DNA of 64,000 nt, from positions 1-64,000 of the IMG/VR virus record IMGVR_UViG_3300043748_000050; one strand, written 5' to 3'. Under the pieces are notes generated by a model. The model was not told where the DNA came from. It saw only the letters and a program-made list of their open reading frames with translations, and did not search any database. The first letter of the stretch is position 1. Every line of letters starts with the position of its first letter. A program made the translations under genes and the position numbers. The stretch is from a virus. Its lineage: Duplodnaviria > Caudoviricetes. Of the stretch, positions 24,332-63,506 are shown in pieces.

Positions 24332-24430
24332 TGGTGGGTCCGTCCGGAGTTGAACCGGAGTCTTCCCGGAGCGCGGGAACCGACCAAGGAACGCGCTCGA
24401 CGGGTGCACTGCCTTCTGTGCTACGGACCC
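24332..24430 (-). ncRNA. tRNA-like RNA with anticodon loop replaced by a hairpin displaying UUCCUUGGUCGGUUCC
   Basis: GGGUCCG/CGGACCC acceptor plus ACCA; U8A9; D arm GCAC/GUGC with GG in the loop; T arm UCCGG-UUCAACU-CCGGA; anticodon arm CCCG+GAGCGCG / CGCGCUC+CGGG closing a 16-nt loop. Confidence 0.88.
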
Positions 24431-36219: not shown

Positions 36220-36914
36220 CGGTGATCCGATCCGTACTCGGCCCGCACCCGGCGCAGGGCTGTGGCGAATCCCTCGCCGCTTCGGAAGTCCCGCCACACG
36301 CGGCAGTCGGTCAGGGTCGCCTCAGCCGCGTTGACCACCGAATACCGCTCGTCCATCGGCGTCTTGCCCGCCGCCGGGTGGATGTGCTCGATGACGACGT
36401 CCGGCAGGTACCGGAGCCCTCCCAGGGCTTGGCCCAGCTCTAGCCAGAAGTTGTCGACGTACAGATGCCGGAGGCACGGCGGGGCCATGTAGCCCAGCGC
36501 CCGTACGAGCCGGGACGGCAGGAAGGCGGCAGTCGGCAACGCGGCGCCTTGCAGCAGGTCGTTGCCGTAGACCACGCGGGGCTCGAGGGTGTCGAGGGCA
36601 CCGAGCACGTGGGCGTCCCAGCCAGCGGTGCGCGGCAGGTGGTCGTCACCCATGAACCCGAGGTGATCGTAGATGTCCGTGTACAGGCCGGCCGCCCAGT
36701 TGAGCGCCGACACCATTCCTTGCCCGCCCTGGCCCCGGTGGATCAGTAGCCGGGGTGCCGCCGTGTGGTAGGCGGGCAGTTCGGGATCGTCCTGGTCGGC
36801 GACGAAGACCAGTTCTGCGTTGAGCGAGTCGGTCTCCTTGAACGCGTTCACCAGCCGGGCCGCGTTCTGCGGCCGGCCACGCGTCGGGACGATGACCAGC
36901 AGTGGTGCGGTCAT
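36216..36914 (-). CDS. Glycosyltransferase family 2 / GT-A
   Basis: IVPTRGRP, MGDDH, YVDN, IEHIHP. Confidence 0.8.
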   Translation of the reverse strand: MTAPLLVIVPTRGRPQNAARLVNAFKETDSLNAELVFVADQDDPELPAYHTAAPRLLIHRGQGGQGMVSALNWAAGLYTDIYDHLGFMGDDHLPRTAGWDAHVLGALDTLEPRVVYGNDLLQGAALPTAAFLPSRLVRALGYMAPPCLRHLYVDNFWLELGQALGGLRYLPDVVIEHIHPAAGKTPMDERYSVVNAAEATLTDCRVWRDFRSGEGFATALRRVRAEYGSDHR

Positions 36915-36993
36915 GATTCCTCCGTTCCGTGGTCCGGTGGAGCGCCGGAAAGGTACCGGGAAATCCCCGAATCACCGCATGGCCGCACGACGA

Positions 36994-37412
36994 AGCCCCG
37001 GGCCGTTGCGGCGCCGGGGCTTTGGGTGTTGGTCAGCCCATCGGCTCCCGTTGACCGGTGAACCGGTTGAGCCGGACCCAAGAGCCGTCCGCGCGGCGGT
37101 CGGCCACGGAGTCGCGGTTGCCGTTCCGGCTCCTCTCGTTCCAGACGGCCACGTGACCGGGGACGTCCAGGCGGTCCAGGAAGTCCTTCGCCTCTCGGAA
37201 CGTGGTGGACTCCTGCTCCCGGCCAGCGAAGCGGCGTCCGTCGCGGACCACGGTCTCGGTCGCCATGTAGGTCCGCTTGGCGTTGCGGGGAATTCGTGTG
37301 GTCATGGTCCGTGCTCCTTGGTCGGCGTCCTGGTGAATTAATTAAACCATCGACGTGGACGGAACGCAATCCAGGGCACGACAAAGCCCCGGCGCCGCAA
37401 CGGCCCGGGGCT
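36994..37412. repeat. 31-bp exact inverted repeats (terminator hairpins) flanking a one-gene cassette
   Basis: 36994-37024 is the reverse complement of 37382-37412. Confidence 0.85.
37033..37305 (-). CDS. Hypothetical protein
   Basis: Promoter TTGCGT-17bp-TTTAAT (37341-37369). Confidence 0.7.
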   Translation of the reverse strand: MTTRIPRNAKRTYMATETVVRDGRRFAGREQESTTFREAKDFLDRLDVPGHVAVWNERSRNGNRDSVADRRADGSWVRLNRFTGQREPMG

Positions 37413-37424
37413 CGACGGTCGAGG

Positions 37425-37604
37425 TCAGTCCTCCAATTCGGCGTAGTGGTAGTCGTGAAGCTCTGCGGCCTCGGCCATGTCCTCGTGGTCGCGTGCGGCG
37501 GCCCGGCACTGGCTGGCGCCCGAGGTGTCGGGGTCCTCGGCGGCGGTCCGGCGGAGGGCGGCGGCCTCTCCCCGGTGGTACCTGATGGCGTCGCTGCGCT
37601 TCAT
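37425..37604 (-). CDS. Small hypothetical protein
   Basis: GAGGAAGG RBS. Confidence 0.55.
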   Translation of the reverse strand: MKRSDAIRYHRGEAAALRRTAAEDPDTSGASQCRAAARDHEDMAEAAELHDYHYAELED

Positions 37605-37657
37605 CGCGCGGTCCTTCCTCGGTGGGGTCGGATAAGAAGGCTCGTGTGTCGGACGGG

Positions 37658-37957
37658 TCAGCAGGTCTCCAGTTCGCCGACGACCTCCCACAGCGTGCTG
37701 TCGACGGTCCGGAGAACGTTCGTCACGCGGGGGCTGTCGTCGAGCAGGGCGACGGCGTCCAGGTAGCTCGCGGCCTCGTCCAGCGCGTTCAGGTTCGGGT
37801 CGAGCGGGCTGAGCCGCGTAGTCGCGTCCCGCAGGAGTCCGGCGAGGCCTTCGACGGTGGGTGCGTACTTGGTGACGGTGAGCCCGACGGCGTCGGCGAT
37901 CCGTGCGGCGTAGTCGGCGTGCAGAGTTGCGACGGTGCGGGCGTTCTTGACCTTCAT
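37658..37957 (-). CDS. Hypothetical protein
   Basis: Leader motif at 37968, just downstream of a hammerhead. Confidence 0.7.
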   Translation of the reverse strand: MKVKNARTVATLHADYAARIADAVGLTVTKYAPTVEGLAGLLRDATTRLSPLDPNLNALDEAASYLDAVALLDDSPRVTNVLRTVDSTLWEVVGELETC

Positions 37958-37978
37958 GATTCCTCGATTCCTTGGTCT

Positions 37979-38033
37979 GCCTCGTCAGTACCGGGGGACC
38001 GTTCCCGGCAGACGCCCCGCAGGGCGTTTCGGC
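37979..38033 (-). ncRNA. Type II hammerhead ribozyme, copy 1
   Basis: GCC-GAAA-CGCCC(UGCG)GGGCG-UC^-UGCCGGG(AACGGUCC)CCCGGUA-CUGACGA-GGC; cleavage predicted between 38011 and 38010. Confidence 0.85.
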
Positions 38034-38049
38034 TATCCATGGTGGCGGA

Positions 38050-38253
38050 CTACCAGTCGCCGAAGGTGCAGACGATGGAGCAGCCGGACGCCCGACAGTC
38101 GTGGGCGCGGATCTCGGCGGCGCGCTCTTCGTCCTGCTGCGCGCGGGACTTCGCCCACCTCACCGGCTCGGCGCCGGCCTTCAGTTCCTCGCAGCGCGGG
38201 CAGCCGTCGAACTTCTGGCCGAAGCGCGGGGCGTGGTTGTGCTTCGTCGTCAT
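38050..38253 (-). CDS. Small Cys/His-rich protein
   Basis: Leader motif at 38265; CPRC...H.C...C...CTFGDW. Confidence 0.7.
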   Translation of the reverse strand: MTTKHNHAPRFGQKFDGCPRCEELKAGAEPVRWAKSRAQQDEERAAEIRAHDCRASGCSIVCTFGDW

Positions 38254-38296
38254 GGCTTCCTCGGTTCCTTGGTCAGGTGGTGCGTGGACAGGCGGG

Positions 38297-38392
38297 TCAG
38301 TTGTCGGTGCCGCGCTTCAACGGGACGAACACGACCCACAGGGTGATGACGATCAGCGGGGCAAAGGCGGCGACGGTGATCAGGGCGTACAT
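38297..38392 (-). CDS. 31-aa single-TM peptide
   Basis: Leader motif at 38403 plus GAGGGAG. Confidence 0.5.
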   Translation of the reverse strand: MYALITVAAFAPLIVITLWVVFVPLKRGTDN

Positions 38393-38429
38393 GGCTCCCT
38401 CATTCCTTGGTCGGTCGTGCGTGAACAGG

Positions 38430-39113
38430 TCAGATGAAGGTGCAGGTAGCCGAGTGCGTGCCGTTCGGCAGTCCGGTCAGGTCGGCGATCTCGTCACCGG
38501 TCAGGCGCAGCCGTTGGGCGAGCACCGCTCCCACGGCGGTGATTCGGTCCCAGTGCTCGTTCACGAGTTCGTCGGCGAGCTGGTGCACGATCAGGAAGTC
38601 GTTGTAGCCGCCCTCGAAGCCGAGGCCGGGGTTCCAGCCGAGAATCGCGCGGCGATCGCTATACGCTCCGAACTCGACTCCGACGGCGAGTTCGGGGGTC
38701 CACAGCCCGGCTTCGTGCAGCCAGCGGTCCTCGGCCCGTTCGCCGGCGCCCAGGAGGACGACGAAGTCCCGTCCGTCCGAGACGCTGCACGCCGCGACGT
38801 TGCCGCCGACCCGGTGACCTTCGATGACCATCCCGGCCGTGGCCCGCAGGTCTGCGGTGCGCCGGATCCACGCGTGGTGGACGAACCCGCCGGCCGCGAG
38901 TGCGGCAACGGCGTGGGCGGCTTCGTGCACTGCGCGCATGCTGTCCCGCTGGTCGTCGGTCAAGTCGGCCAAGAGGACGTCACTGTCCACCACCCCGTCG
39001 GGAACCCGGTGCCGTGTCGGATACGGAGCACCGTTGATCACCGCGTCGTCACGCCAGACGGGGACGGCCGGAGGGGTCCATGTCACGGGCGTGCTCTGCG
39101 CGGTGCCGGTCAT
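38430..39113 (-). CDS. HEXXH zinc-metalloprotease-like protein, paralog B
   Basis: HEAAHAV...AGERAE.RWL.E..LWTPE...SD...HWDRI.AV..VL. Confidence 0.65.
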   Translation of the reverse strand: MTGTAQSTPVTWTPPAVPVWRDDAVINGAPYPTRHRVPDGVVDSDVLLADLTDDQRDSMRAVHEAAHAVAALAAGGFVHHAWIRRTADLRATAGMVIEGHRVGGNVAACSVSDGRDFVVLLGAGERAEDRWLHEAGLWTPELAVGVEFGAYSDRRAILGWNPGLGFEGGYNDFLIVHQLADELVNEHWDRITAVGAVLAQRLRLTGDEIADLTGLPNGTHSATCTFI

Positions 39114-39138
39114 GGTCGGTTCCTCGTTTCCTTGGTCT

Positions 39139-39193
39139 GCCTCGTCAGTACCGGGAGACCGTCCCCGGCAGACGCCCCTCGGGGCGTTTCGGC
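39139..39193 (-). ncRNA. Type II hammerhead ribozyme, copy 2
   Basis: GCC-GAAA-CGCCC(CGAG)GGGCG-UC^-UGCCGGG(GACGGUCU)CCCGGUA-CUGACGA-GGC; differs from copy 1 only in loops; cleavage between 39171 and 39170. Confidence 0.85.
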
Positions 39194-39195
39194 TG

Positions 39196-39675
39196 TCAGG
39201 CGGAGAGTGCCTTCATGTACGAGTACAGGGCGTACACGACGTCGTCGGTGCGGCCGGCGTCCAGCGAGGCGTAGAGCTTCGTCAGGCGGGACGGCTGGCG
39301 GCTGGCGAGCTTGACGAAGCCGATGGCGACCAGGTCTGAGAACATCCTGGGCGCCACGCCCTGCGGCGGGGTGATCTCCAGCGCGCGGGCCTGGACGGTC
39401 TCGCGGGCTGCTTCGAACCTCTCGTCGGTCGTGTCGTCCTTGTCGTCCGCCGTGGTGTCGCTCACGAGCGTCCAGCCCCACTTGACCATGTCCCGGACGG
39501 CCGTGCGGAAGGTGTGGAGGTCACCGCGCACGGTGTTGCGGGCGGTGACTCGGCCGTCCACCTTGACGATCTTCTGGCAGCGGTCGCGCCGGGCGGAGTG
39601 CAGGACGGTCAGGGTCTCGTTGCCCTTGGTGAGAACGGCCTTGTCCAGCTTCTCCGAGGTGGCGTTGGCGGTCAT
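39196..39675 (-). CDS. Hypothetical protein
   Basis: Promoter TTGTGG-18bp-TTTAAT (39723-39752). Confidence 0.7.
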   Translation of the reverse strand: MTANATSEKLDKAVLTKGNETLTVLHSARRDRCQKIVKVDGRVTARNTVRGDLHTFRTAVRDMVKWGWTLVSDTTADDKDDTTDERFEAARETVQARALEITPPQGVAPRMFSDLVAIGFVKLASRQPSRLTKLYASLDAGRTDDVVYALYSYMKALSA

Positions 39676-39816
39676 GGTCCGCTCCCGTCTGGTCGTGGGT
39701 CGGGCTCTTCCCGACTGATTTAATTAAACCATCCGGGTGCGGGTCTCCACAAGACCCCGATTCCAAGAAGTTTCGGCCGACTCGCCGATCCGCTCACCTG
39801 CGGATACGGTGCCGAC

Positions 39817-40056
39817 ATGCCCGTACCCGACGCACCTCACCCCCGACTCGCACCGTCGCCACAACCCTGGTGCATCGCCGTTCCGGACGGCGCCTGCTTC
39901 GACGGCGGAGTGGACTTCGTCCTCGGCCCGTACGACAGCGAGGCCGAGGCATGGGACGTCCACGGTCGGCTCGGCCACGACACGTGCGACTGCATGGCCG
40001 TCCCCGCGTTCACGGAGACGCCGAGAGGGGCCCCGGTCGCCCCGGAGCCCCTCTGA
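39817..40056 (+). CDS. Hypothetical protein
   Basis: Only sizeable plausible ORF in the gap; no clear RBS. Confidence 0.35.
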   Translation: MPVPDAPHPRLAPSPQPWCIAVPDGACFDGGVDFVLGPYDSEAEAWDVHGRLGHDTCDCMAVPAFTETPRGAPVAPEPL

Positions 40057-40073
40057 TCGGCCGTGCCATGACG

Positions 40074-40481
40074 TCACCGCCTCTTGTGCGCGCCCTTGTC
40101 CAGCATCGCCGTGGCCTTGGCCCGCGCCTCGGCCGCGCCGGCCTGCGAGTTGATGATGTACGCGATCACCAGCCCGAGCAGGGCCAGAGCCGCGAGGACC
40201 GCCACGACCACGACCAGTACGGCGGCCAGCACGGTGGCGCACAGCGTGAGGACGACGCACGCGAACAGCGCGACCCACAGCCACGGCAGGATCTTCTCCG
40301 CCACCGACTTCTCGGGGCCCTGACGGACGATGTGTCCGGCCGGGATCGGTTCTGATGCCGCGTAGTGGTGGTGCACGTGGAACTCCACCTTGCCCTCGGC
40401 ACCCGGCGGCGGCGTCGGGTTGGCGCGCAGGTAGTGCTCAAGCTCCGCCGGGACGGTGGCGTACCTCCGCTCAATCTCCAT
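40074..40481 (-). CDS. Membrane protein, Spd (plasmid spread)-like
   Basis: HVHHHY followed by a long hydrophobic segment; near traB. Confidence 0.55.
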   Translation of the reverse strand: MEIERRYATVPAELEHYLRANPTPPPGAEGKVEFHVHHHYAASEPIPAGHIVRQGPEKSVAEKILPWLWVALFACVVLTLCATVLAAVLVVVVAVLAALALLGLVIAYIINSQAGAAEARAKATAMLDKGAHKRR

Positions 40482-41206: not shown

Positions 41207-43210
41207 TCACCCGGCGGCTGCCTCCGCGTACAGACTGCCGGCGATCGCGTAGACCGCCCGCTCCGTAGGCGGGGTGAGCCTCTTCAGCACACCGTCCTCG
41301 GCCAGTTGCTCCAGCTCGCCGTACACCCAGCCGCGAGGCTTGCCGGTCAGCTCCGGGATGTCCTCCAGCGCCTCGAACGTCACCTCGGTCTGGTTGCTGC
41401 CGGACAGGATGTTGATCCGGTTGAGCAGCTCCGCACGGGCGTCGTCGTCGGTCATTTGGTCCCGCACCGGAGCTGCGAAGGTGACGCCCCGGCCGCGCGG
41501 CGCGGCCAGCGGTTCGCTTACGTCGATTCCGTCCTCACCTGCCGTGCCCAGGTCGCTGACCTCGGCAAAGTCGTCGTCCACCGTTCCCTCCACGTCTTGC
41601 TCCACGGCCGCCGGAGCGGTCTCGTCCACGACCCCGGCCGCCAGGATGCGGTAGGACCCGGCGTCCATGTCGGCCCAGAACTCCCGGGTGACCTGCTTCA
41701 TCTGCTCGCGGTCGGCCGCCTTCACGCGCGGCGCCCGTCCGTCGATCGCCCAGTGGACCTTGTCCGTGCCCGTGACCTCGGCATACAGCGAACCGGGCGC
41801 GTTGTTGGCCCACTTGGTCGGGTCGGCACCCGCTTCGAGCGTCTCCGCCTCCAGCGAGTACCGCGCGTCCTGCATCTCCTTCTGCCCGTGGGCCAGGCTC
41901 TGAGCGAACTGACCTCGGGTTTTCCGGTCGATGTTGTTGTGCGGCATGGTCTGCATCGACGCGCAGAAGTGCACGCCGACCGACCTGAGTTTGCGCAGGG
42001 CCTCGTCGGCTTCCTCGTCCACCACCATCATCACGTCGGCGGCCTCTTCGATGTCCAGGAAGATGGCCGGGATGCCGTGCAGCGTGTACAGCTCAGGCAC
42101 CCACTGCTTGTACCCGACTTTGCCGTCCGACCTGGTCAGTTCACCGAACAGACCTGCCCGGTACTCGATGAGCGGGATGAGGTTGCGCACCAGTTGCTCG
42201 GTGGCCTCCCTGGTCTTCGCGGCCAGGCCCAGCACTTCCTCGATGTCACCGAACGACTGCCGGAACTTGGCCGGGTCGCCGACCACGGGCACCACGTCGA
42301 TGCGCTCGCGCATCTCGAGAATCGCCGTGCAGATGGTCTCCGTCTTGCCCGAGCCGGTCATGCCGGTGCACTTCGTGTGGGCCAGTGGCCTGGGGTTTTC
42401 GTCGTCCTCGGACCCGACGATCCACCAGTTGATGGACGATCCGTCGGTGCGGTCCCCGAGCCAGATCGGGAAGTCCGCGATGGACGCCCCGAGGTGACGC
42501 GGGCCGGTCCAGCCAACAGGCTTCGCCTTGCCCGCAGCGCGGGTGAACGCGATGTCCACCTGACCCTCGTGACCTGCGACTTTGAGCACCTTGACCTGGT
42601 CGGCGCCGACGCCAGCGACGGCCGCGATCTGCTCCCGGGCGTGCTGGGCGTCCGCCGCCGTGGTCGGGGCATCCAGGTGGACCCGGGCGCGCAGCTCGTC
42701 CGGCTTCTCCGTGACCGTGCCGACCCGGGCGTCCTTGAACGCCCGGACCTTGGCCAGCAGACCACCGTCTTTACCCTCGCTGACCTGAGACTTGTCGACG
42801 TCACGGACGCCGGACAGGGCCGCGTGACGCACGCACCAGGAGACGCAGAGGACTAGGCTGCCGATCGCCCAGGCCTCGAACACGTCCGCCTGCCACGGCC
42901 GGATGGCGATGGCGAAGATGGACCAGGTCAGCACGGCAACGGTGAACACCGTGACCATGGCCCGGGTCTCCTGTCGGCGTACCGCCCAGGACTTCCAGGT
43001 GACGTACCCCAGGTACATGAAGCCGGCGGTGAGGAACGCCATCCACAGGTTGCCGTGCGCGTTGCGGGCGACGACGACGTGGAGTATGGCGGACAGCAGC
43101 CAGACGGCCACGACGACGACCCACGGCAGCACGTACGAGGTGAGGCGTTCAGGCACCCTGAGCAGGGCTGTTGCCCGCAGGCGGGGCGCGTTGTTCGACA
43201 CTTCCTCCAC
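41207..43210 (-). CDS. traB: TraB-like FtsK/SpoIIIE-family conjugative DNA translocase
   Basis: N-terminal TMs; GMTGSGKT Walker A; IFLDIEEA Walker B; RSVG....S.Q; C-terminal wHTH. Confidence 0.8.
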   Translation of the reverse strand: MEEVSNNAPRLRATALLRVPERLTSYVLPWVVVVAVWLLSAILHVVVARNAHGNLWMAFLTAGFMYLGYVTWKSWAVRRQETRAMVTVFTVAVLTWSIFAIAIRPWQADVFEAWAIGSLVLCVSWCVRHAALSGVRDVDKSQVSEGKDGGLLAKVRAFKDARVGTVTEKPDELRARVHLDAPTTAADAQHAREQIAAVAGVGADQVKVLKVAGHEGQVDIAFTRAAGKAKPVGWTGPRHLGASIADFPIWLGDRTDGSSINWWIVGSEDDENPRPLAHTKCTGMTGSGKTETICTAILEMRERIDVVPVVGDPAKFRQSFGDIEEVLGLAAKTREATEQLVRNLIPLIEYRAGLFGELTRSDGKVGYKQWVPELYTLHGIPAIFLDIEEAADVMMVVDEEADEALRKLRSVGVHFCASMQTMPHNNIDRKTRGQFAQSLAHGQKEMQDARYSLEAETLEAGADPTKWANNAPGSLYAEVTGTDKVHWAIDGRAPRVKAADREQMKQVTREFWADMDAGSYRILAAGVVDETAPAAVEQDVEGTVDDDFAEVSDLGTAGEDGIDVSEPLAAPRGRGVTFAAPVRDQMTDDDARAELLNRINILSGSNQTEVTFEALEDIPELTGKPRGWVYGELEQLAEDGVLKRLTPPTERAVYAIAGSLYAEAAAG

Positions 43211-58549: not shown

Positions 58550-59043
58550 AGCCGGCCGAGGCGTACCAGCTCGTCACGCCGTTACCGACGACGTGGCGGG
58601 GAATCTCCTACCGGTCACGCACCGAGGCACGGTTCGCCGTCTTCATGACCGAGGCCCGGATCCCGTTCGAGCACGAGCCGCAGGCGTACCGCGTCGCCGG
58701 CCGGGGCTACCTGCCGGACTTCCGCATACGGCCCCATCACGGCGCTGACCAGGTGTGGATGGAGATTAAGCCGAGCGTGGATACCTTGGACGACCCACGC
58801 TGGCGGGCTCTTGTCCTTCAGACAAGGTCGATGCTGTTCGTCGTGCGCGGGCTGCACCGCCGGGGAGACACCTGCGGGCGTGATCACAGCGTCCGTGTCT
58901 GGCACCCCGACGGCGTGACGGCGGATGTGGACACGATGTGGACCGGGCCCGAGTACCGACACGCCTGGGACACCGCCCACGCCGCCCGATTCGATGGCGC
59001 GCGGTCCGGTCGCCCGGGACGCCGAAAGGGGAGGAGAACGTAA
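58546..59043 (+). CDS. PD-(D/E)xK nuclease-like protein
   Basis: YRSRTEARFA.F...EHEP...YLPDF...MEIKP. Confidence 0.7.
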   Translation: MKPAEAYQLVTPLPTTWRGISYRSRTEARFAVFMTEARIPFEHEPQAYRVAGRGYLPDFRIRPHHGADQVWMEIKPSVDTLDDPRWRALVLQTRSMLFVVRGLHRRGDTCGRDHSVRVWHPDGVTADVDTMWTGPEYRHAWDTAHAARFDGARSGRPGRRKGRRT

Positions 59044-59102
59044 GTGATCACCCAGCCCCACCAGACCAAGGAAGCACGGACCAAGGAAGCAGGAACAGAC
59101 CG

Positions 59103-62100
59103 ATGACCACATTCGTGGGCACTGACCAGGGGCGGGTGTCCGACCACACCCCGCAGGTATCCGACAGTCACGCGGGGGAGCTGGACGCCAGCGAGATCGC
59201 ACACGACGTGCGGGACGCCCGGGGCTACGAGACCCTCTACGGCACCGACGAGGACAAGGCGTTTCTGCGGCAGCAGAAGATTCCGTACTGGGCCTGGAAA
59301 GAGGACTCCGCCTTCCCGGGACTGCTCTTGCCGATGTACCGGGTGACCGGCGAGAAGATCGGCGTGATGTTCAAGCCCGGCGAACCGCAGGTGCTCAACA
59401 CGAAGAAGGTGAAGTACGCAACCCAAGTGGGCAAGGCCCGCTTGGACATCCCGCCGACCGTGGCGCACCTGGTCCGGCCGACCGAGCCCGAGATGCTCCG
59501 TGAGTTCCCCCTGTGGATCACGGAAGGGATCAAGAAAGCTGATGCCCTCGCGTCCAAGGGCATCGCCACAGTCACCTTGTCCGGGGTCTACAACTGGCGG
59601 GCGACCCTCGGCACACTCGGGGACTGGGAGGAAGTCCCCCTCAAGGGTCGCAGGGTCATCATCTGCTTTGACGCCGACGCCCGGCACAAGCCGGACGTCT
59701 TGCAGGCCATGCTCCGTCTGGGCCGGTGGCTGGAGACCCGGCGAGTGGAGAGCGTCTTCTACCTGATCGTTCCCGAGGAAGTGAACGGGGTCGAGGTCAA
59801 GGGCGTCGACGATTTCTTCCACGCAGGCGGCACGCTGGGCGACCTGCGGGACGCGGCCACACAGATCGCCCCGTCGGACAACACCAGGGACGCCGCGTTC
59901 AGCGACGCCGTCCTGGTCGAAACCCTGTGCATGGAAACCCTGGAAGGCCGATACCGGTGGGCATCCGGACTCGGGTGGCTGAACTGGAACGGCAACGTGT
60001 GGTCTGAATGCTCCGAGGCCCAGGTTCTGGAAGAGATCCGGCTATGGGCCCGCGCAGGGTGGGACCGGACCCTGGAGGAGATGCGCGGGGGCAAGGATCT
60101 GAGTTCCCAACTGGCCGGATGGAAGGGCGCGATGTCGGCCAGCAAGCTGGCTAGCCTACTCAAGCTCGCCCGGGGCGTGAGCGGGATCCTGGCCGACGCG
60201 ACTGATTTCGACTACGACCCGGACGTCATCAACTGTCAGAACGGCATCCTGGACCTGCGCACAGGGGTTCTGACGCCTCACGACCCCGACCGTCTCATGA
60301 CGAAGATCACCGGGTGTGACTACGTCCCGGGGGCGACGCACCCCGACTGGACCACGGCGCTGGAGGCCGTCCCGGGCGACTCCCGCGACTGGTTCCAGAC
60401 CCGCAGCGGCCAGGCCCTCACCGGACACACCCCGCCGGACGACTTGATCCTCATCCTCCAGGGCGGCGGATCCAACGGGAAGTCGTCGGTGATGGACACC
60501 ATCGCCAAGGCCGCCGGGAAGAAGGGCGGCTACCACACGGCCGTGTCCGACAAGGCGCTGCTCGGCAACGCCTCGGAGGGCCACTCCACGGAGATGATGC
60601 CGTTCATGGGCGCCCGCCTCGCCGTGCTGGAGGAGACGCCGGAGGCCAAGCGGCTGGACGTCACCCGGGTCAAGAAGCTCGCCGGCACCGAGCAGATCAC
60701 CGCGCGCAAGATCCGCCAGGACAACGTCACCTTCATCACGACGCACACCCTGATCATCAACACCAACTTCAAGCCGCTGGTGGACGAGACCGACCACGGT
60801 ACGTGGCGCCGGCTCGCGATGCTGTGCTTCCCGTTCACCTACCGCAAGCCCGGAGAGGCTTGCACGGGCCCGAACGACAAGCGAGGAGACCAGAACCTGC
60901 GCCAGCGTCTGCGGACGGACGACGGCCCCCGTACCGAGGCCGCGCTGGCGTGGATGGTGGAGGGCGCCCGCAAGTGGTACGGGGACGGCCAGGTCATGTC
61001 CGCACCGCCGGAGCGGGTGGAGAGGGACACCCTGGAGTGGCGCAAGGAATCGGACCTGATCCTGTCCTTCATCGGGGACGTGCTGGCGTTCGACTGGAAC
61101 AGCCACATCCTCTCCAAGGAGCTGCACGAGGTCTTCAACAGGTACCTGGCCGACAAGGGTCACCGGGAGTGGACGGACCGCACGTTCGTCAGCCGATTCG
61201 GAAGCCACGACGAGTGCGCACGGAACTCAGTCCAGCGGAAGAAGATCAGGGTTCGGGACGGCCGGTCGACGCTGGGCGGACCGCCGCCCAAGGGCGTCAA
61301 CTACCACGCGTGGATCGGGATCAAGTTCCAGAGCCCGGACGGAAAAGACGAGGTCAACGAGGGTGAGCCGGAAGGTGTACCCCCTGTACCTTCTTCTCCG
61401 GTTAACGCTGAAAATGCTTCTCCTATAGAGGTAACCGACGAAGGAGGTACAGCGGGTACACGCCCCGAACCACCTGCTGACGCGGACCCCTTCGGAGAAG
61501 ATCCTTTCGCGGAAGCGGAATCCGATCACACCCCTTCGGCCGCCATCCCGGCACCCGCAGCACCCCCGGCCGCCGAGACCGTCCAGCGCGCCGGCGGCGG
61601 GGCCATCGGGTTCGACATCGAGTCCCACTCCGTCCTACAGCTGTTCACCCACACCGACCTCGGCGGGGACCCGTACACCAAGCTGTCCGGCTACGTCATC
61701 GAGGACGGCACGGAGGTGGTCGTCAACTCCCCGGCGGAGCTCATCAAGCGCCTCGAGGACGCGGACGAGATCTACGGCCACAACCTGCTCGGGTTCGACC
61801 TGATGGCCCTCGCCCGCCACCACGGCGCCGACTACGACGCCCTGGCCGCCAAGACGGTGGACACCATGCGGTGGGCCATGACCGTCGACCCGCCCGGCGC
61901 CAAGGGCGAGAAGCCGTGGTCCACCAAGGGCTACTACAGCCTGGACGGCCTCGCCGGCCGGCTCGGCATGCCCGGCAAGACGGACAACCTGCGGGCCCTC
62001 GCCATCAAGCACGCGCCCGAGGAGATCGACGGCCGCAAGCTGACCGACGACGAGCGGGCCGAGATCGGGTACGGCCGGATCCCCGCCGATGACCCGGAGT

Positions 62101-63506
62101 ACCGCAGCTACTTCAGCGGCGACCTGAAGGCGACCCGGGGCGTGCGGCGCGCTCTCGGTGAGCCATCGGACTACGTCCGGCGCGAGATGCGCGTGGCCCA
62201 CCTCCAGCACCGCATGACGTTCAACGGCTGGCGCGTGGACGTCCCCGAGCTGACCCGGCTGGTGCAGGCCGAGGAGGACAAGCGGCAGGAATCCCTCCAG
62301 TGGCTGCACGAGAACTGCGGCGTGCCGCTCACCGAGACGGTCGGCACGGGCCGGGGCAAAAACCGCGTCTTCACCGAGGTGCCGAGGAAGGCCCCACTGT
62401 CTTCCAATGAGGGTCGAGACGCGCTCATCCGGGCGTTCGCCGACCGGGGTCTGCCTTACTACCTTCGGACGGCCTCCGGAACGCTCGCCACCAGCAAGGA
62501 CGCGCTGGGGGACACCGCGTACCTGGTGGGCAAGGGCAAAGAGACTCGCGAGCTGCCCGCCCTGCTCAACCCCAACCGGCGCGTGCTCCACCCGGACGCG
62601 GACTGGGCGGCCATCGAGGAGATGGCGAGTCACATCGGCCTCGTGACGTCCTCGGTGCAGAAGTACGCGGAAATCCAGAAGCACCTCGTAGGGGACCGGG
62701 TGCACCCGAAGGTCGGCGACCTCCAGGCGTCTGGCCGATGGGCGTACGTCAACCCGTCGGTGACCAACATGGGCAAGCGCGGCGGCAAGGTCCACCAGCG
62801 CCGTCCGATGATCGCGGACGACGGCATGCTGCTGATCGCGTTCGACCTGGATCAGGTCGACATGCGTGCCGTGGCCGGCCACAGCCAGGACCAGGCGTAC
62901 ATGGCGCTGTTCGAGCCCGGCATGGATGCGCACAGCATGGTCACCGACGCGGTGTTCGGCCGGGACAACTGCGAGTGCGCCGGGCCGAAGCACACCTGCG
63001 AGTGGCGGGACAAGTCCAAGGCGTCCGGCCACGGTTGGAACTACGGCATGGGTGTGAACAGCCTGGTGCTGCGCCAGGGTGTCGAGCGGACCGTGGCTCA
63101 GCAGTTCGATGATCAGATGAACAGCCAGTTCCCCGGGCTGTGCGCCTGGAGGACTGAGGTCCGCGACCGGGGCAAGGCCGGCGAGATGCTGGACAACGGG
63201 TTCGGACGGCTCATGCGCTGCAACCCCGACCGGGCGTGGACGCAGGCGCCCGCGCTGATGGGCCAGGGCGGCGCCCGGGACATCATGTGCGAAGCCCTGC
63301 TGCGGCTGGTCGAGCGGGCCCCGGAGGCCACGGAGTGGCTGCGCTGCGTCGTCCATGACGAGGTGGTCCTGTGCGTCCCCGGGGACCGCGTGGAGGAGAT
63401 CAGCGCGACGGTGCTGGACGCGTTCAGCTTCGAGTTCAAGGGCGTGCCGATCACGGCCGGGGCGAGCAAGGCGTCGGTCACGTGGAGCGGTTGCTACGCG
63501 AAGTGA
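59103..63506 (+). CDS. Primase (DUF3854/TOPRIM)-P4/D5 helicase-family A DNA polymerase fusion
   Basis: WITEG.KKAD, CFDAD, KGVDD; GGGSNGKS; FDIE and GHNLLGFD exonuclease; DLDQVDMR, RDKSKASGHGWNYG, VHDE. Confidence 0.9.
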   Translation: MTTFVGTDQGRVSDHTPQVSDSHAGELDASEIAHDVRDARGYETLYGTDEDKAFLRQQKIPYWAWKEDSAFPGLLLPMYRVTGEKIGVMFKPGEPQVLNTKKVKYATQVGKARLDIPPTVAHLVRPTEPEMLREFPLWITEGIKKADALASKGIATVTLSGVYNWRATLGTLGDWEEVPLKGRRVIICFDADARHKPDVLQAMLRLGRWLETRRVESVFYLIVPEEVNGVEVKGVDDFFHAGGTLGDLRDAATQIAPSDNTRDAAFSDAVLVETLCMETLEGRYRWASGLGWLNWNGNVWSECSEAQVLEEIRLWARAGWDRTLEEMRGGKDLSSQLAGWKGAMSASKLASLLKLARGVSGILADATDFDYDPDVINCQNGILDLRTGVLTPHDPDRLMTKITGCDYVPGATHPDWTTALEAVPGDSRDWFQTRSGQALTGHTPPDDLILILQGGGSNGKSSVMDTIAKAAGKKGGYHTAVSDKALLGNASEGHSTEMMPFMGARLAVLEETPEAKRLDVTRVKKLAGTEQITARKIRQDNVTFITTHTLIINTNFKPLVDETDHGTWRRLAMLCFPFTYRKPGEACTGPNDKRGDQNLRQRLRTDDGPRTEAALAWMVEGARKWYGDGQVMSAPPERVERDTLEWRKESDLILSFIGDVLAFDWNSHILSKELHEVFNRYLADKGHREWTDRTFVSRFGSHDECARNSVQRKKIRVRDGRSTLGGPPPKGVNYHAWIGIKFQSPDGKDEVNEGEPEGVPPVPSSPVNAENASPIEVTDEGGTAGTRPEPPADADPFGEDPFAEAESDHTPSAAIPAPAAPPAAETVQRAGGGAIGFDIESHSVLQLFTHTDLGGDPYTKLSGYVIEDGTEVVVNSPAELIKRLEDADEIYGHNLLGFDLMALARHHGADYDALAAKTVDTMRWAMTVDPPGAKGEKPWSTKGYYSLDGLAGRLGMPGKTDNLRALAIKHAPEEIDGRKLTDDERAEIGYGRIPADDPEYRSYFSGDLKATRGVRRALGEPSDYVRREMRVAHLQHRMTFNGWRVDVPELTRLVQAEEDKRQESLQWLHENCGVPLTETVGTGRGKNRVFTEVPRKAPLSSNEGRDALIRAFADRGLPYYLRTASGTLATSKDALGDTAYLVGKGKETRELPALLNPNRRVLHPDADWAAIEEMASHIGLVTSSVQKYAEIQKHLVGDRVHPKVGDLQASGRWAYVNPSVTNMGKRGGKVHQRRPMIADDGMLLIAFDLDQVDMRAVAGHSQDQAYMALFEPGMDAHSMVTDAVFGRDNCECAGPKHTCEWRDKSKASGHGWNYGMGVNSLVLRQGVERTVAQQFDDQMNSQFPGLCAWRTEVRDRGKAGEMLDNGFGRLMRCNPDRAWTQAPALMGQGGARDIMCEALLRLVERAPEATEWLRCVVHDEVVLCVPGDRVEEISATVLDAFSFEFKGVPITAGASKASVTWSGCYAK
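61375..61461. repeat. Inverted-repeat element (ori-like), copy 2, in the helicase-polymerase linker
   Basis: GTGTACCCCCTGTACC...GGTACAGCGGGTACAC around an AT-rich core. Confidence 0.7.

Follow-up and report, generated by a model that had tools for sequence, protein, structure and literature searches.

Introduction

Several type II hammerhead ribozymes flank blocks of prophage genes and cleave both in vitro and in vivo (PMC3088659), and three type II hammerheads that adjoin phage genes in Desulfovibrio vulgaris cleave in vivo (PMC8782182). Their placement between the stop codon of one gene and the Shine-Dalgarno (SD) element and ATG of the next, in multiple copies within phage operons, is also already known (Perreault 2011, PMC3088659). 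Type II hammerheads that form a pseudoknot between loop I and the 3' tail need this pseudoknot for fast cleavage (PMC3088659). Here, two candidate ribozymes of this class, HH1 and HH2, are described from the virus record IMGVR_UViG_3300043748_000050 (Duplodnaviria; Caudoviricetes). The record is complete, with 98,039 bp and direct terminal repeats, and the stretch analysed, called the window below, is its first 64 kb. Both ribozymes lie in an operon of small accessory genes, and their 3' tails overlap a 10-nt leader motif, GACCAAGGAA, that recurs at the start sites of about 40 genes of this phage.

Two other systems are useful for comparison. RiboJ-type insulators, which are engineered from a type III satellite-RNA ribozyme, place a hammerhead and a hairpin just 5' of the ribosome-binding site (RBS), so that upstream RNA is stripped off and a defined 5'-OH end with a hairpin is left. 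The second system is the start-associated sequence (SAS) of Cluster K mycobacteriophages, for which binding by an RNA or a protein has been proposed (Pope et al. 2011, PMC3203893).

Identity and anatomy of the ribozymes

An initial annotation, made by reading the letters of the window, had proposed two type II hammerheads with intact cores, and the Rfam model search that it suggested bears this out. Using cmscan with the model Hammerhead_II (RF02276; gathering score 37 bits), HH1 was matched at 39131..39194 on the minus strand with 66.2 bits (E 1.6e-11) and HH2 at 37971..38034 on the same strand with 61.4 bits (E 2.9e-10). Both matches are full-length (model positions 1-66 of 66) and include the 3' pseudoknot tail, and they are the sole RF02276 matches in the whole record. 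Every core base is present in both copies, namely CUGACGA (consensus CUGANGA), GAAA and the cleavage triplet GUC (an NUH triplet), and both have the type II topology, with stems I and III closed by loops, stem II open and a score above the threshold.

From 5' to 3', each copy consists of the 3' strand of stem II (GCC), GAAA, a 6-bp stem III hairpin, GUC, a 22-nt stem I hairpin, CUGACGA and the 5' strand of stem II (GGC), which is followed by A-GACC-AAGGAA, a spacer, GAGGAA and ATG. The GUC between stems III and I places the predicted cleavage site of HH1 after C39171 (39170..39171), so that U39170 would become the 5'-OH end; the corresponding site of HH2 would lie after C38011 (38010..38011). 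Both ribozymes are on the coding strand, where they occupy the space from a stop codon to the RBS that follows.

The bases of loop I can pair with those just 3' of stem II over at least 4 bp in both copies. In HH1, the loop I strand GGUCU (39156..39160) forms 5 bp with AGACC of the tail (39134..39138), with a predicted duplex energy of -7.2 kcal/mol; in HH2, GGUC (37997..38000) forms 4 bp with GACC (37974..37977), at -6.3 kcal/mol. The initial annotation had noticed this complementarity and taken it for the loop-tail pseudoknot of type II hammerheads, and rightly so, as it matches the described interaction (PMC3088659) and covaries across the family. The same GACC also forms the first four bases of a leader. 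In HH1 this is the leader of the downstream gene g227 (39128..39137, minus strand), which is followed by SD and ATG, and in HH2 it is that of g99 (37968..37977, minus strand), and the exact 10-mer is present in both tails. The exact coordinates also place both pseudoknot strands on the 3' product after cleavage.

HH1 and HH2 are direct repeats with 94% identity, 1,160 bp apart. When aligned with their surroundings over 77 bases, they agree at 71. Stems III and I each account for two of the six differences, at their tops, and of the other two one precedes the ribozyme and one falls in the leader spacer. All of them fall outside the core and helices if the apical closing pairs are counted as loop, and with that proviso the earlier statement that the copies differ only in their loops is correct. 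Judged by these sequence features, HH1 and HH2 are true and well-formed members of the type II class, of a subtype and in a context that are already known.

A common subtype in an uncommon genome

Searching phage records by BLAST with HH1 returned a gut phage scaffold, MT835795 (95.5% identity over 44 nt), and Dulem virus 39 (87% over 62 nt), together with phages of Burkholderia, Ralstonia, Pseudomonas, Chromohalobacter and Alteromonadaceae and the Streptomyces phages R4, phiELB20, Amethyst, Tefunt, Diane, Jevington and Marav. Rfam confirmed 15 ribozymes among the records found in this way. In the examined phage records 15 of 15 ribozymes were intergenic, and where annotation was available the upstream coding sequence (CDS) stopped at the ribozyme or no more than a few nt from it, and about 10-20 nt separated the ribozyme from the CDS that followed. 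Two side observations concern these records. In phage R4 (NC_019414, positions 600-683), the annotated CDS gp60.1 (84 nt) coincides with a Hammerhead_II match of 51.6 bits and is probably a ribozyme rather than a gene, and Jevington carries two hammerheads about 250 nt apart around an unannotated gap.

For a wider survey, ribozymes were picked from IMG/VR by their loop I alone (ACGGUC, n=103; GUGGUG, n=117; loci L032-L263), and the tail was then scored. The ACGGUC loop was accompanied by an AGACC tail in 94 of 103 ribozymes, while the GUGGUG loop was never accompanied by AGACC (0/117) and had an AGCC tail in 100 of 117. Fisher P values for this table are descriptive only, as the sequences are related and independence is overstated. 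The contingency table replaced pair counting on a MAFFT alignment, in which the variable length of stem II shifted the tails and the loops were preset by the search patterns. Covarying pairs of loop I and tail include GGUCU:AGACC, GGGGU:ACCCC (the Amethyst group), GGGU:ACCC (Jevington) and UGGU:RCCR (the Rfam consensus type). Within 40 nt of the core, 84 of 103 ACGGUC and 86 of 117 GUGGUG ribozymes have both an SD-like element and a start codon. The initial annotation had described both ribozymes as running straight into leader, SD and ATG, and the coordinates agree; running straight into an SD and ATG is, however, a trait of the family and not peculiar to this phage.

The survey also changes how the match between tail and leader should be read. 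The initial annotation equated the 3' tails with the leader motif of this phage. AGACC is the standard tail of the ACGGUC subtype and occurs in more than 90 unrelated, mostly low-GC phage contigs. In these contigs its usual continuation is AGACCAGAAAGG...ATG, in low-GC phages without a GACCAAGGAA regulon. Because AGACC is thus native to a very common subtype found in phages that lack the leader, the tail is no special adaptation to the leader. The contigs carrying ACGGUC/AGACC ribozymes have a median GC content of 0.39 and a maximum of 0.58, compared with 0.68 for the phage of HH1 and HH2; by this measure the ribozyme is an unusual guest in a high-GC genome. The GUGGUG/AGCC subtype has a median GC of 0.63, so the two large subtypes separate by genome GC, and stem II is mostly 3-4 bp long in the former subtype and 2 bp in the latter.

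The combination of this ribozyme with this leader was also sought directly. The exact ribozyme-plus-leader string had no match in IMG/VR. A pattern of the core, 2-4 nt and AGACCANGGAA was run against genome, viral and metagenome contigs, and 157 of 158 among the matches listed were chance occurrences with no hammerhead upstream. A further seven matches to the AGACCANGGAA pattern included five or six chance occurrences, and the only clear real ribozyme among the matches listed was a low-GC one (L411, identical with L429).

The leader motif and its antisense RNA

At up to one mismatch, GACCAAGGAA occurs at 47 sites of the window against 2.3 expected, a number reached in 0 of 100 shuffles. In the genome there are 40 exact copies, compared with 0-1 for a control pattern. 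Genome-wide, 50 leader sites are followed by ATG or GTG, mostly 8-17 nt on, and nearly all are on the coding strand; a separate GAGGA usually accompanies them. An AT-rich palindrome is found 2-38 nt upstream of 18 of the 50 leaders. The leader thus behaves as SAS motifs do in general, as a short oriented motif repeated before gene starts far above chance, but it is neither GGGATAGGAGCCC nor placed 3-7 bp from the start as in Cluster K. Defined by motif and spacing, it is analogous to the Cluster K SAS without belonging to that group.

Several further features of the leaders may be mentioned. Many read GACCAAGGAA-N3-4-(A)GGAACCGACC-ATG (for example, 39111-39137, 27171, 25016 and 28671, all on the minus strand), and GACC right before the ATG is common. 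A 1,522-aa fusion protein with DUF3854, D5_N primase-helicase and family A DNA polymerase domains is encoded at 58938-63506 on the plus strand. Two tandem leaders (59064 and 59079) stand just 5' of its annotated ATG, are conserved in relatives and fall inside a longer listed open reading frame (ORF) that starts with GTG.

A tRNA-like RNA at 24332..24430 (minus strand), recognised from ARAGORN, sequence and fold, carries in an enlarged anticodon-arm loop the sequence UUCCUUGGUC, which is the leader antisense. Its fold is a cloverleaf in which the anticodon arm is long, and the 16-nt loop of this arm begins with the exact antisense of the 10-nt leader. Homologs are present in the two relatives described below (G002:9203-9299 and G001:587-683); in both, the loop core CCUUGGUCGGUUCC has stayed the same, and changes in the acceptor stem are compensatory (GGGUCCG to GGGCCC(C)). 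Taken over all 16 nt, the complement of the loop reads GGAACC-GACCAAGGAA. The loop could pair with leaders in two registers, either with the 10-mer or with GGAACCGACC abutting the start codon, and for the g227 leader RNAduplex chose the GGAACCGACC register at -23.7 kcal/mol.

The leader is older than the ribozymes

Three related phages were identified through the polymerase-primase protein (76-84% identity), and two of them, G001 and G002 (76-79%), were searched further. Neither contains a hammerhead (best scores 12-13 bits), and they carry 12 and 31 exact leader copies, respectively. Similarly, no hammerhead was found in nine further loci with g227 homologs, covering 122 kb of accessory regions in all. 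Five of these nine loci are from the leader-bearing phage family, and their g227 orthologs have GACCACGGAA-(A)CGAGGAA..ATG directly in front, with no ribozyme; the leader of one of them (L267) differs from that in the window only at the A/C position and the start codon. The 3' end of the ribozyme coincides exactly with the start of this ancestral leader.

The leader is therefore ancestral and the ribozyme insertion is lineage-specific: since relatives have the leader but no hammerhead, the ribozymes appear to have been grafted onto a pre-existing leader, with which they share GACC(A). The phage lineage would already have had GACCA(A/C)GGAA before these genes, the incoming ribozyme subtype would already have required AGACC, and the two would have merged at GACC(A), leaving 4-5 bases in double use. 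The simplest history is an insertion, perhaps at the GACC(A) microhomology of tail and leader, followed by a local duplication that would have given the second copy. The opposite origin, in which the leaders would be decayed ribozyme tails, was considered and rejected, both on account of the relatives that carry leaders without ribozymes and on account of the upstream contexts of the other leaders, in which there are no remnants of CUGANGA or stem I.

The host operon

The operon that hosts the ribozymes is transcribed from the minus strand and is headed by an AT-rich, promoter-like palindrome, GGATGGTTTAATTAAATCAG (39715..39734), which is its putative promoter. The order that follows is g159, HH1, g227-g31-g67, HH2, g99-g59 and a terminator-like hairpin. 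The first gene, g159 (39196..39675), has its stop codon 1 nt before HH1. The first gene after HH1 is g227 (38430..39113), whose product contains an HEAAH motif and which has the SD GAGGAA at 39120-39125 and its ATG at 39111-39113. The block between the ribozymes continues with g31 (38297-38392) and g67 (38050-38253), each of which has a GACCAAGGAA leader of its own, and HH2 begins 15 nt past the g67 stop. It is followed by g99 (37658-37957; SD GAGGAA at 37960-37965, ATG at 37955-37957) and g59 (37425-37604). For both ribozymes, SD and ATG fall within 18-26 nt of stem II. At the operon end, a GC-rich hairpin followed by CUUUGU (37381..37413) resembles a terminator when read by eye, and a simple scan gave no flag for it; the next AT-rich palindrome begins at about 37350. 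The gaps between the ribozymes and the genes upstream of them are too short to hold a promoter, and both ribozymes are for this reason considered to lie within a transcript of about 2.3 kb.

The seven small proteins of or next to the operon, including those of g159 and g227, had no Pfam or PHROG match. Of the 113 homologs of g227, most are from Streptomyces and many lie on contigs of about 90-100 kb; a search for homologs in viral contigs found none. Window genes at 36914-40074 are without homologs in the complete relative G002, and the flanking genes are syntenic; by this comparison of gene content, the interval is a variable accessory region. As side observations, g227 homologs occur also in Kitasatospora (more than 100 across Streptomyces and Kitasatospora, many on contigs of 88-102 kb), and the contigs with these homologs look like the same phage or phage-plasmid family, including an FtsK/TraB-like gene (41207-43210 in the window). 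The AT-rich palindrome (GGTTTAATTAATTCATC-like) is found at 39715-39734, 37331-37350, 21723, 25322, 28704, 32058, 32875, 34035, 63551 and other sites; it looks like a phage promoter or operator, and the same motif is present in relatives.

Proposed function

Taken as a whole, the explanation that we consider probable is that HH1 and HH2 are two paralogous, functional type II hammerheads of the common ACGGUC loop I/AGACC tail subtype, situated in an accessory operon of a Streptomyces-type phage. Their most likely role would be to cut the six-gene accessory mRNA co-transcriptionally into three pieces. Each ribozyme would fold during transcription, aided by the 4-5 bp pseudoknot between loop I and the tail, and would cut after GUC, and the two cuts would split the RNA of about 2.3 kb into three mRNAs, with predicted sizes of about 0.55, 1.16 and 0.6 kb. 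Every upstream piece would have the stem III hairpin and a 2',3'-cyclic phosphate (2',3'-cP) at its 3' end, and every downstream piece would have a 5'-OH and the stem I hairpin at its 5' end, 33 nt ahead of the leader, SD and ATG. A similar spacing is seen at the promoter-proximal leaders, where 2-38 nt separate the palindrome from the leader. Cleavage could in this way uncouple the three segments in stability and translation, as a natural ribozyme insulator would. Splitting of the polycistron had already been put forward in the initial annotation and stands as an expected effect, given that cleavage, in vitro as well as in vivo, is known for related type II hammerheads adjoining phage genes (PMC3088659, PMC8782182). 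Cleavage itself and its effects on stability and translation at this locus we infer by this analogy.

Some observations weigh against this picture. The pseudoknot of HH2 has just 4 bp, and there is an A/C mismatch at the top of its stem I. The minimum free energy (MFE) fold of HH2 is the hammerhead fold, but that of HH1 with its flanks is not; this counts weakly, as pseudoknots and co-transcriptional folding are outside the model. The effects on stability and the insulator-like action draw their support from analogy. Furthermore, the acquisition and duplication are a sample of one, in which selection for the match of tail and leader is not statistically demonstrable, and the ACGGUC/AGACC subtype is otherwise confined to contigs with a GC of at most 0.58, which leaves transfer and convergence as alternative origins.

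Alternative explanations

A different view would be that the ribozymes are passengers at cassette boundaries, that is, selfish or neutral elements that spread with or shuffle small gene cassettes, with the repeats serving as recombination substrates and RNA cleavage being of little selective value to the phage. The region is indeed mosaic, with a small-gene order and content that differ in every relative, and the ribozymes sit exactly at cassette junctions and are absent from 11 relatives; near-identical stem I, loop and tail in unrelated gut phages also suggest horizontal spread. However, the core bases and the paired pseudoknot have been kept and the six differences between the copies avoid the core and helices, which argues for purifying selection on catalysis. 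In addition, the strict layout of stop codon, ribozyme, SD and start across hundreds of phages points to a role at the RNA level. This explanation is therefore regarded as unlikely.

Regulated coupling between the ribozymes and the leader system is, in our assessment, quite unlikely. It could take two forms: the tRNA-like RNA or the ribosome would compete with loop I for GACC and so gate cleavage, or the stem I-tail pseudoknot in the 3' product would gate access to the g227 and g99 leaders. Several properties of the locus would fit. The tRNA-like loop holds the exact antisense of the 10-nt leader, GGUC is presented by loop I and the tRNA-like loop alike, and both pseudoknot strands remain on the 3' product after cleavage. 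The predicted intermolecular duplex (-20 to -24 kcal/mol) is far stronger than the pseudoknot (-6 to -7 kcal/mol), so that competition is physically conceivable, and in a related ribozyme shortening of the pseudoknot lowers the observed rate constant (kobs) 20- to >100-fold (PMC3088659). Against this, AGACC is the default tail of the subtype, including in phages without the leader, and folding and cleavage in cis are fast and irreversible, so that an RNA acting in trans must bind within seconds of synthesis. Moreover, relatives that lack hammerheads altogether have kept both the leader and the tRNA-like RNA, so that this system functions without ribozymes and gating, if it occurred, would be a by-product. 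The proposal of the initial annotation that the tRNA-like RNA gates cleavage or translation, which took complementarity as its whole basis, is for this reason not sustained.

A related and equally improbable idea is that loop I is a cis-encoded mimic of the tRNA-like anti-leader RNA, with both competing for the g227 and g99 leaders. If such a mechanism did operate, the abundance of the tRNA-like RNA could set the rate of self-cleavage or, after cleavage, determine whether g227 and g99 obey or escape the leader regulon, and the locus would represent a natural hammerhead gated by an RNA in trans.

Circularisation of the middle RNA of 1,160 nt (39170 to 38011, containing g227-g31-g67) is very improbable. 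In this scenario a host RtcB-type ligase would join its ends, giving an exonuclease-resistant circle in which a chimeric hammerhead is re-formed. Two same-sense hammerheads with identical stem II strands do flank the block, and the ends they would produce, 5'-OH and 2',3'-cP, are established RtcB substrates. RtcB was searched for in the phage and is absent, the re-formed ribozyme would cut the circle again, and we know of no reported precedent for an RtcB-circularised, hammerhead-flanked mRNA in bacterial operons.

That the ribozymes are inactive relics or chance look-alikes whose hairpins act merely as structural spacers or terminator-like elements, for which the non-native MFE fold of HH1 with its flanks could be cited, is scarcely credible given scores 24-29 bits over the curated cut-off, window E-values of 1e-10 to 1e-11 and the presence of all invariant core bases in two copies.

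Comparison with known systems

The ribozyme pair alone leaves existing knowledge of hammerheads unchanged. What it adds is a clear case of type II hammerheads in a large lineage of Streptomyces phages or phage-plasmids, alongside those of cultured Streptomyces phages such as R4. The survey yields a rule, in which a stop codon is followed by the ribozyme and then by SD and start, as well as strong covariation of loop and tail in two large subtypes. HH1 and HH2 do overlap a start-associated leader, and the best reading of this overlap is that they were grafted onto an older leader; it would illustrate how joining a ribozyme to a translation leader already in place can give a few bases a double role, in catalysis and in the leader. 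If the tRNA-like anti-leader RNA is functional, g227 and g99 would be the cistrons at which a competing cis structure might modulate leader access.

HH1 and HH2 have the same core, three-stem topology, open stem II and pseudoknot as the described RF02276 ribozymes (PMC3088659), and they share stem I, loop and tail with the widespread ACGGUC/AGACC subtype. They differ from that subtype in the GC content of their genome (68%, against a sampled median of 39%) and in that the tail continues as the phage's exact 10-nt start-associated motif. As in the prophage operons with multiple hammerheads, such as the ardA triple of Agrobacterium tumefaciens and those of Clostridium scindens and Azorhizobium caulinodans (PMC3088659), same-sense copies within 1-2 kb would split a polycistron into gene-sized pieces; here, by contrast, there are two copies around a three-gene block and cleavage is predicted from sequence. 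The Streptomyces phages named above (R4, phiELB20, Amethyst, Tefunt, Diane, Jevington and Marav) share the host group and the placement from stop codon through ribozyme to SD and start, but their loops and tails differ (for example, GGGGU:ACCCC), and none has an AGACC tail or a genome-wide leader overlapping the tail.

The leader resembles the SAS of Cluster K mycobacteriophages (PMC3203893) in being a short asymmetric motif just 5' of many non-structural gene starts in an actinophage. It differs in its motif, GACCAAGGAA rather than GGGATAGGAGCCC, and in its position 8-17 nt from the start and upstream of a separate SD, compared with 3-7 bp; no overlap with a ribozyme is known for the SAS of Cluster K.

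In their placement just ahead of an RBS, HH1 and HH2 resemble the RiboJ-type insulators, but they are natural elements and of type II.

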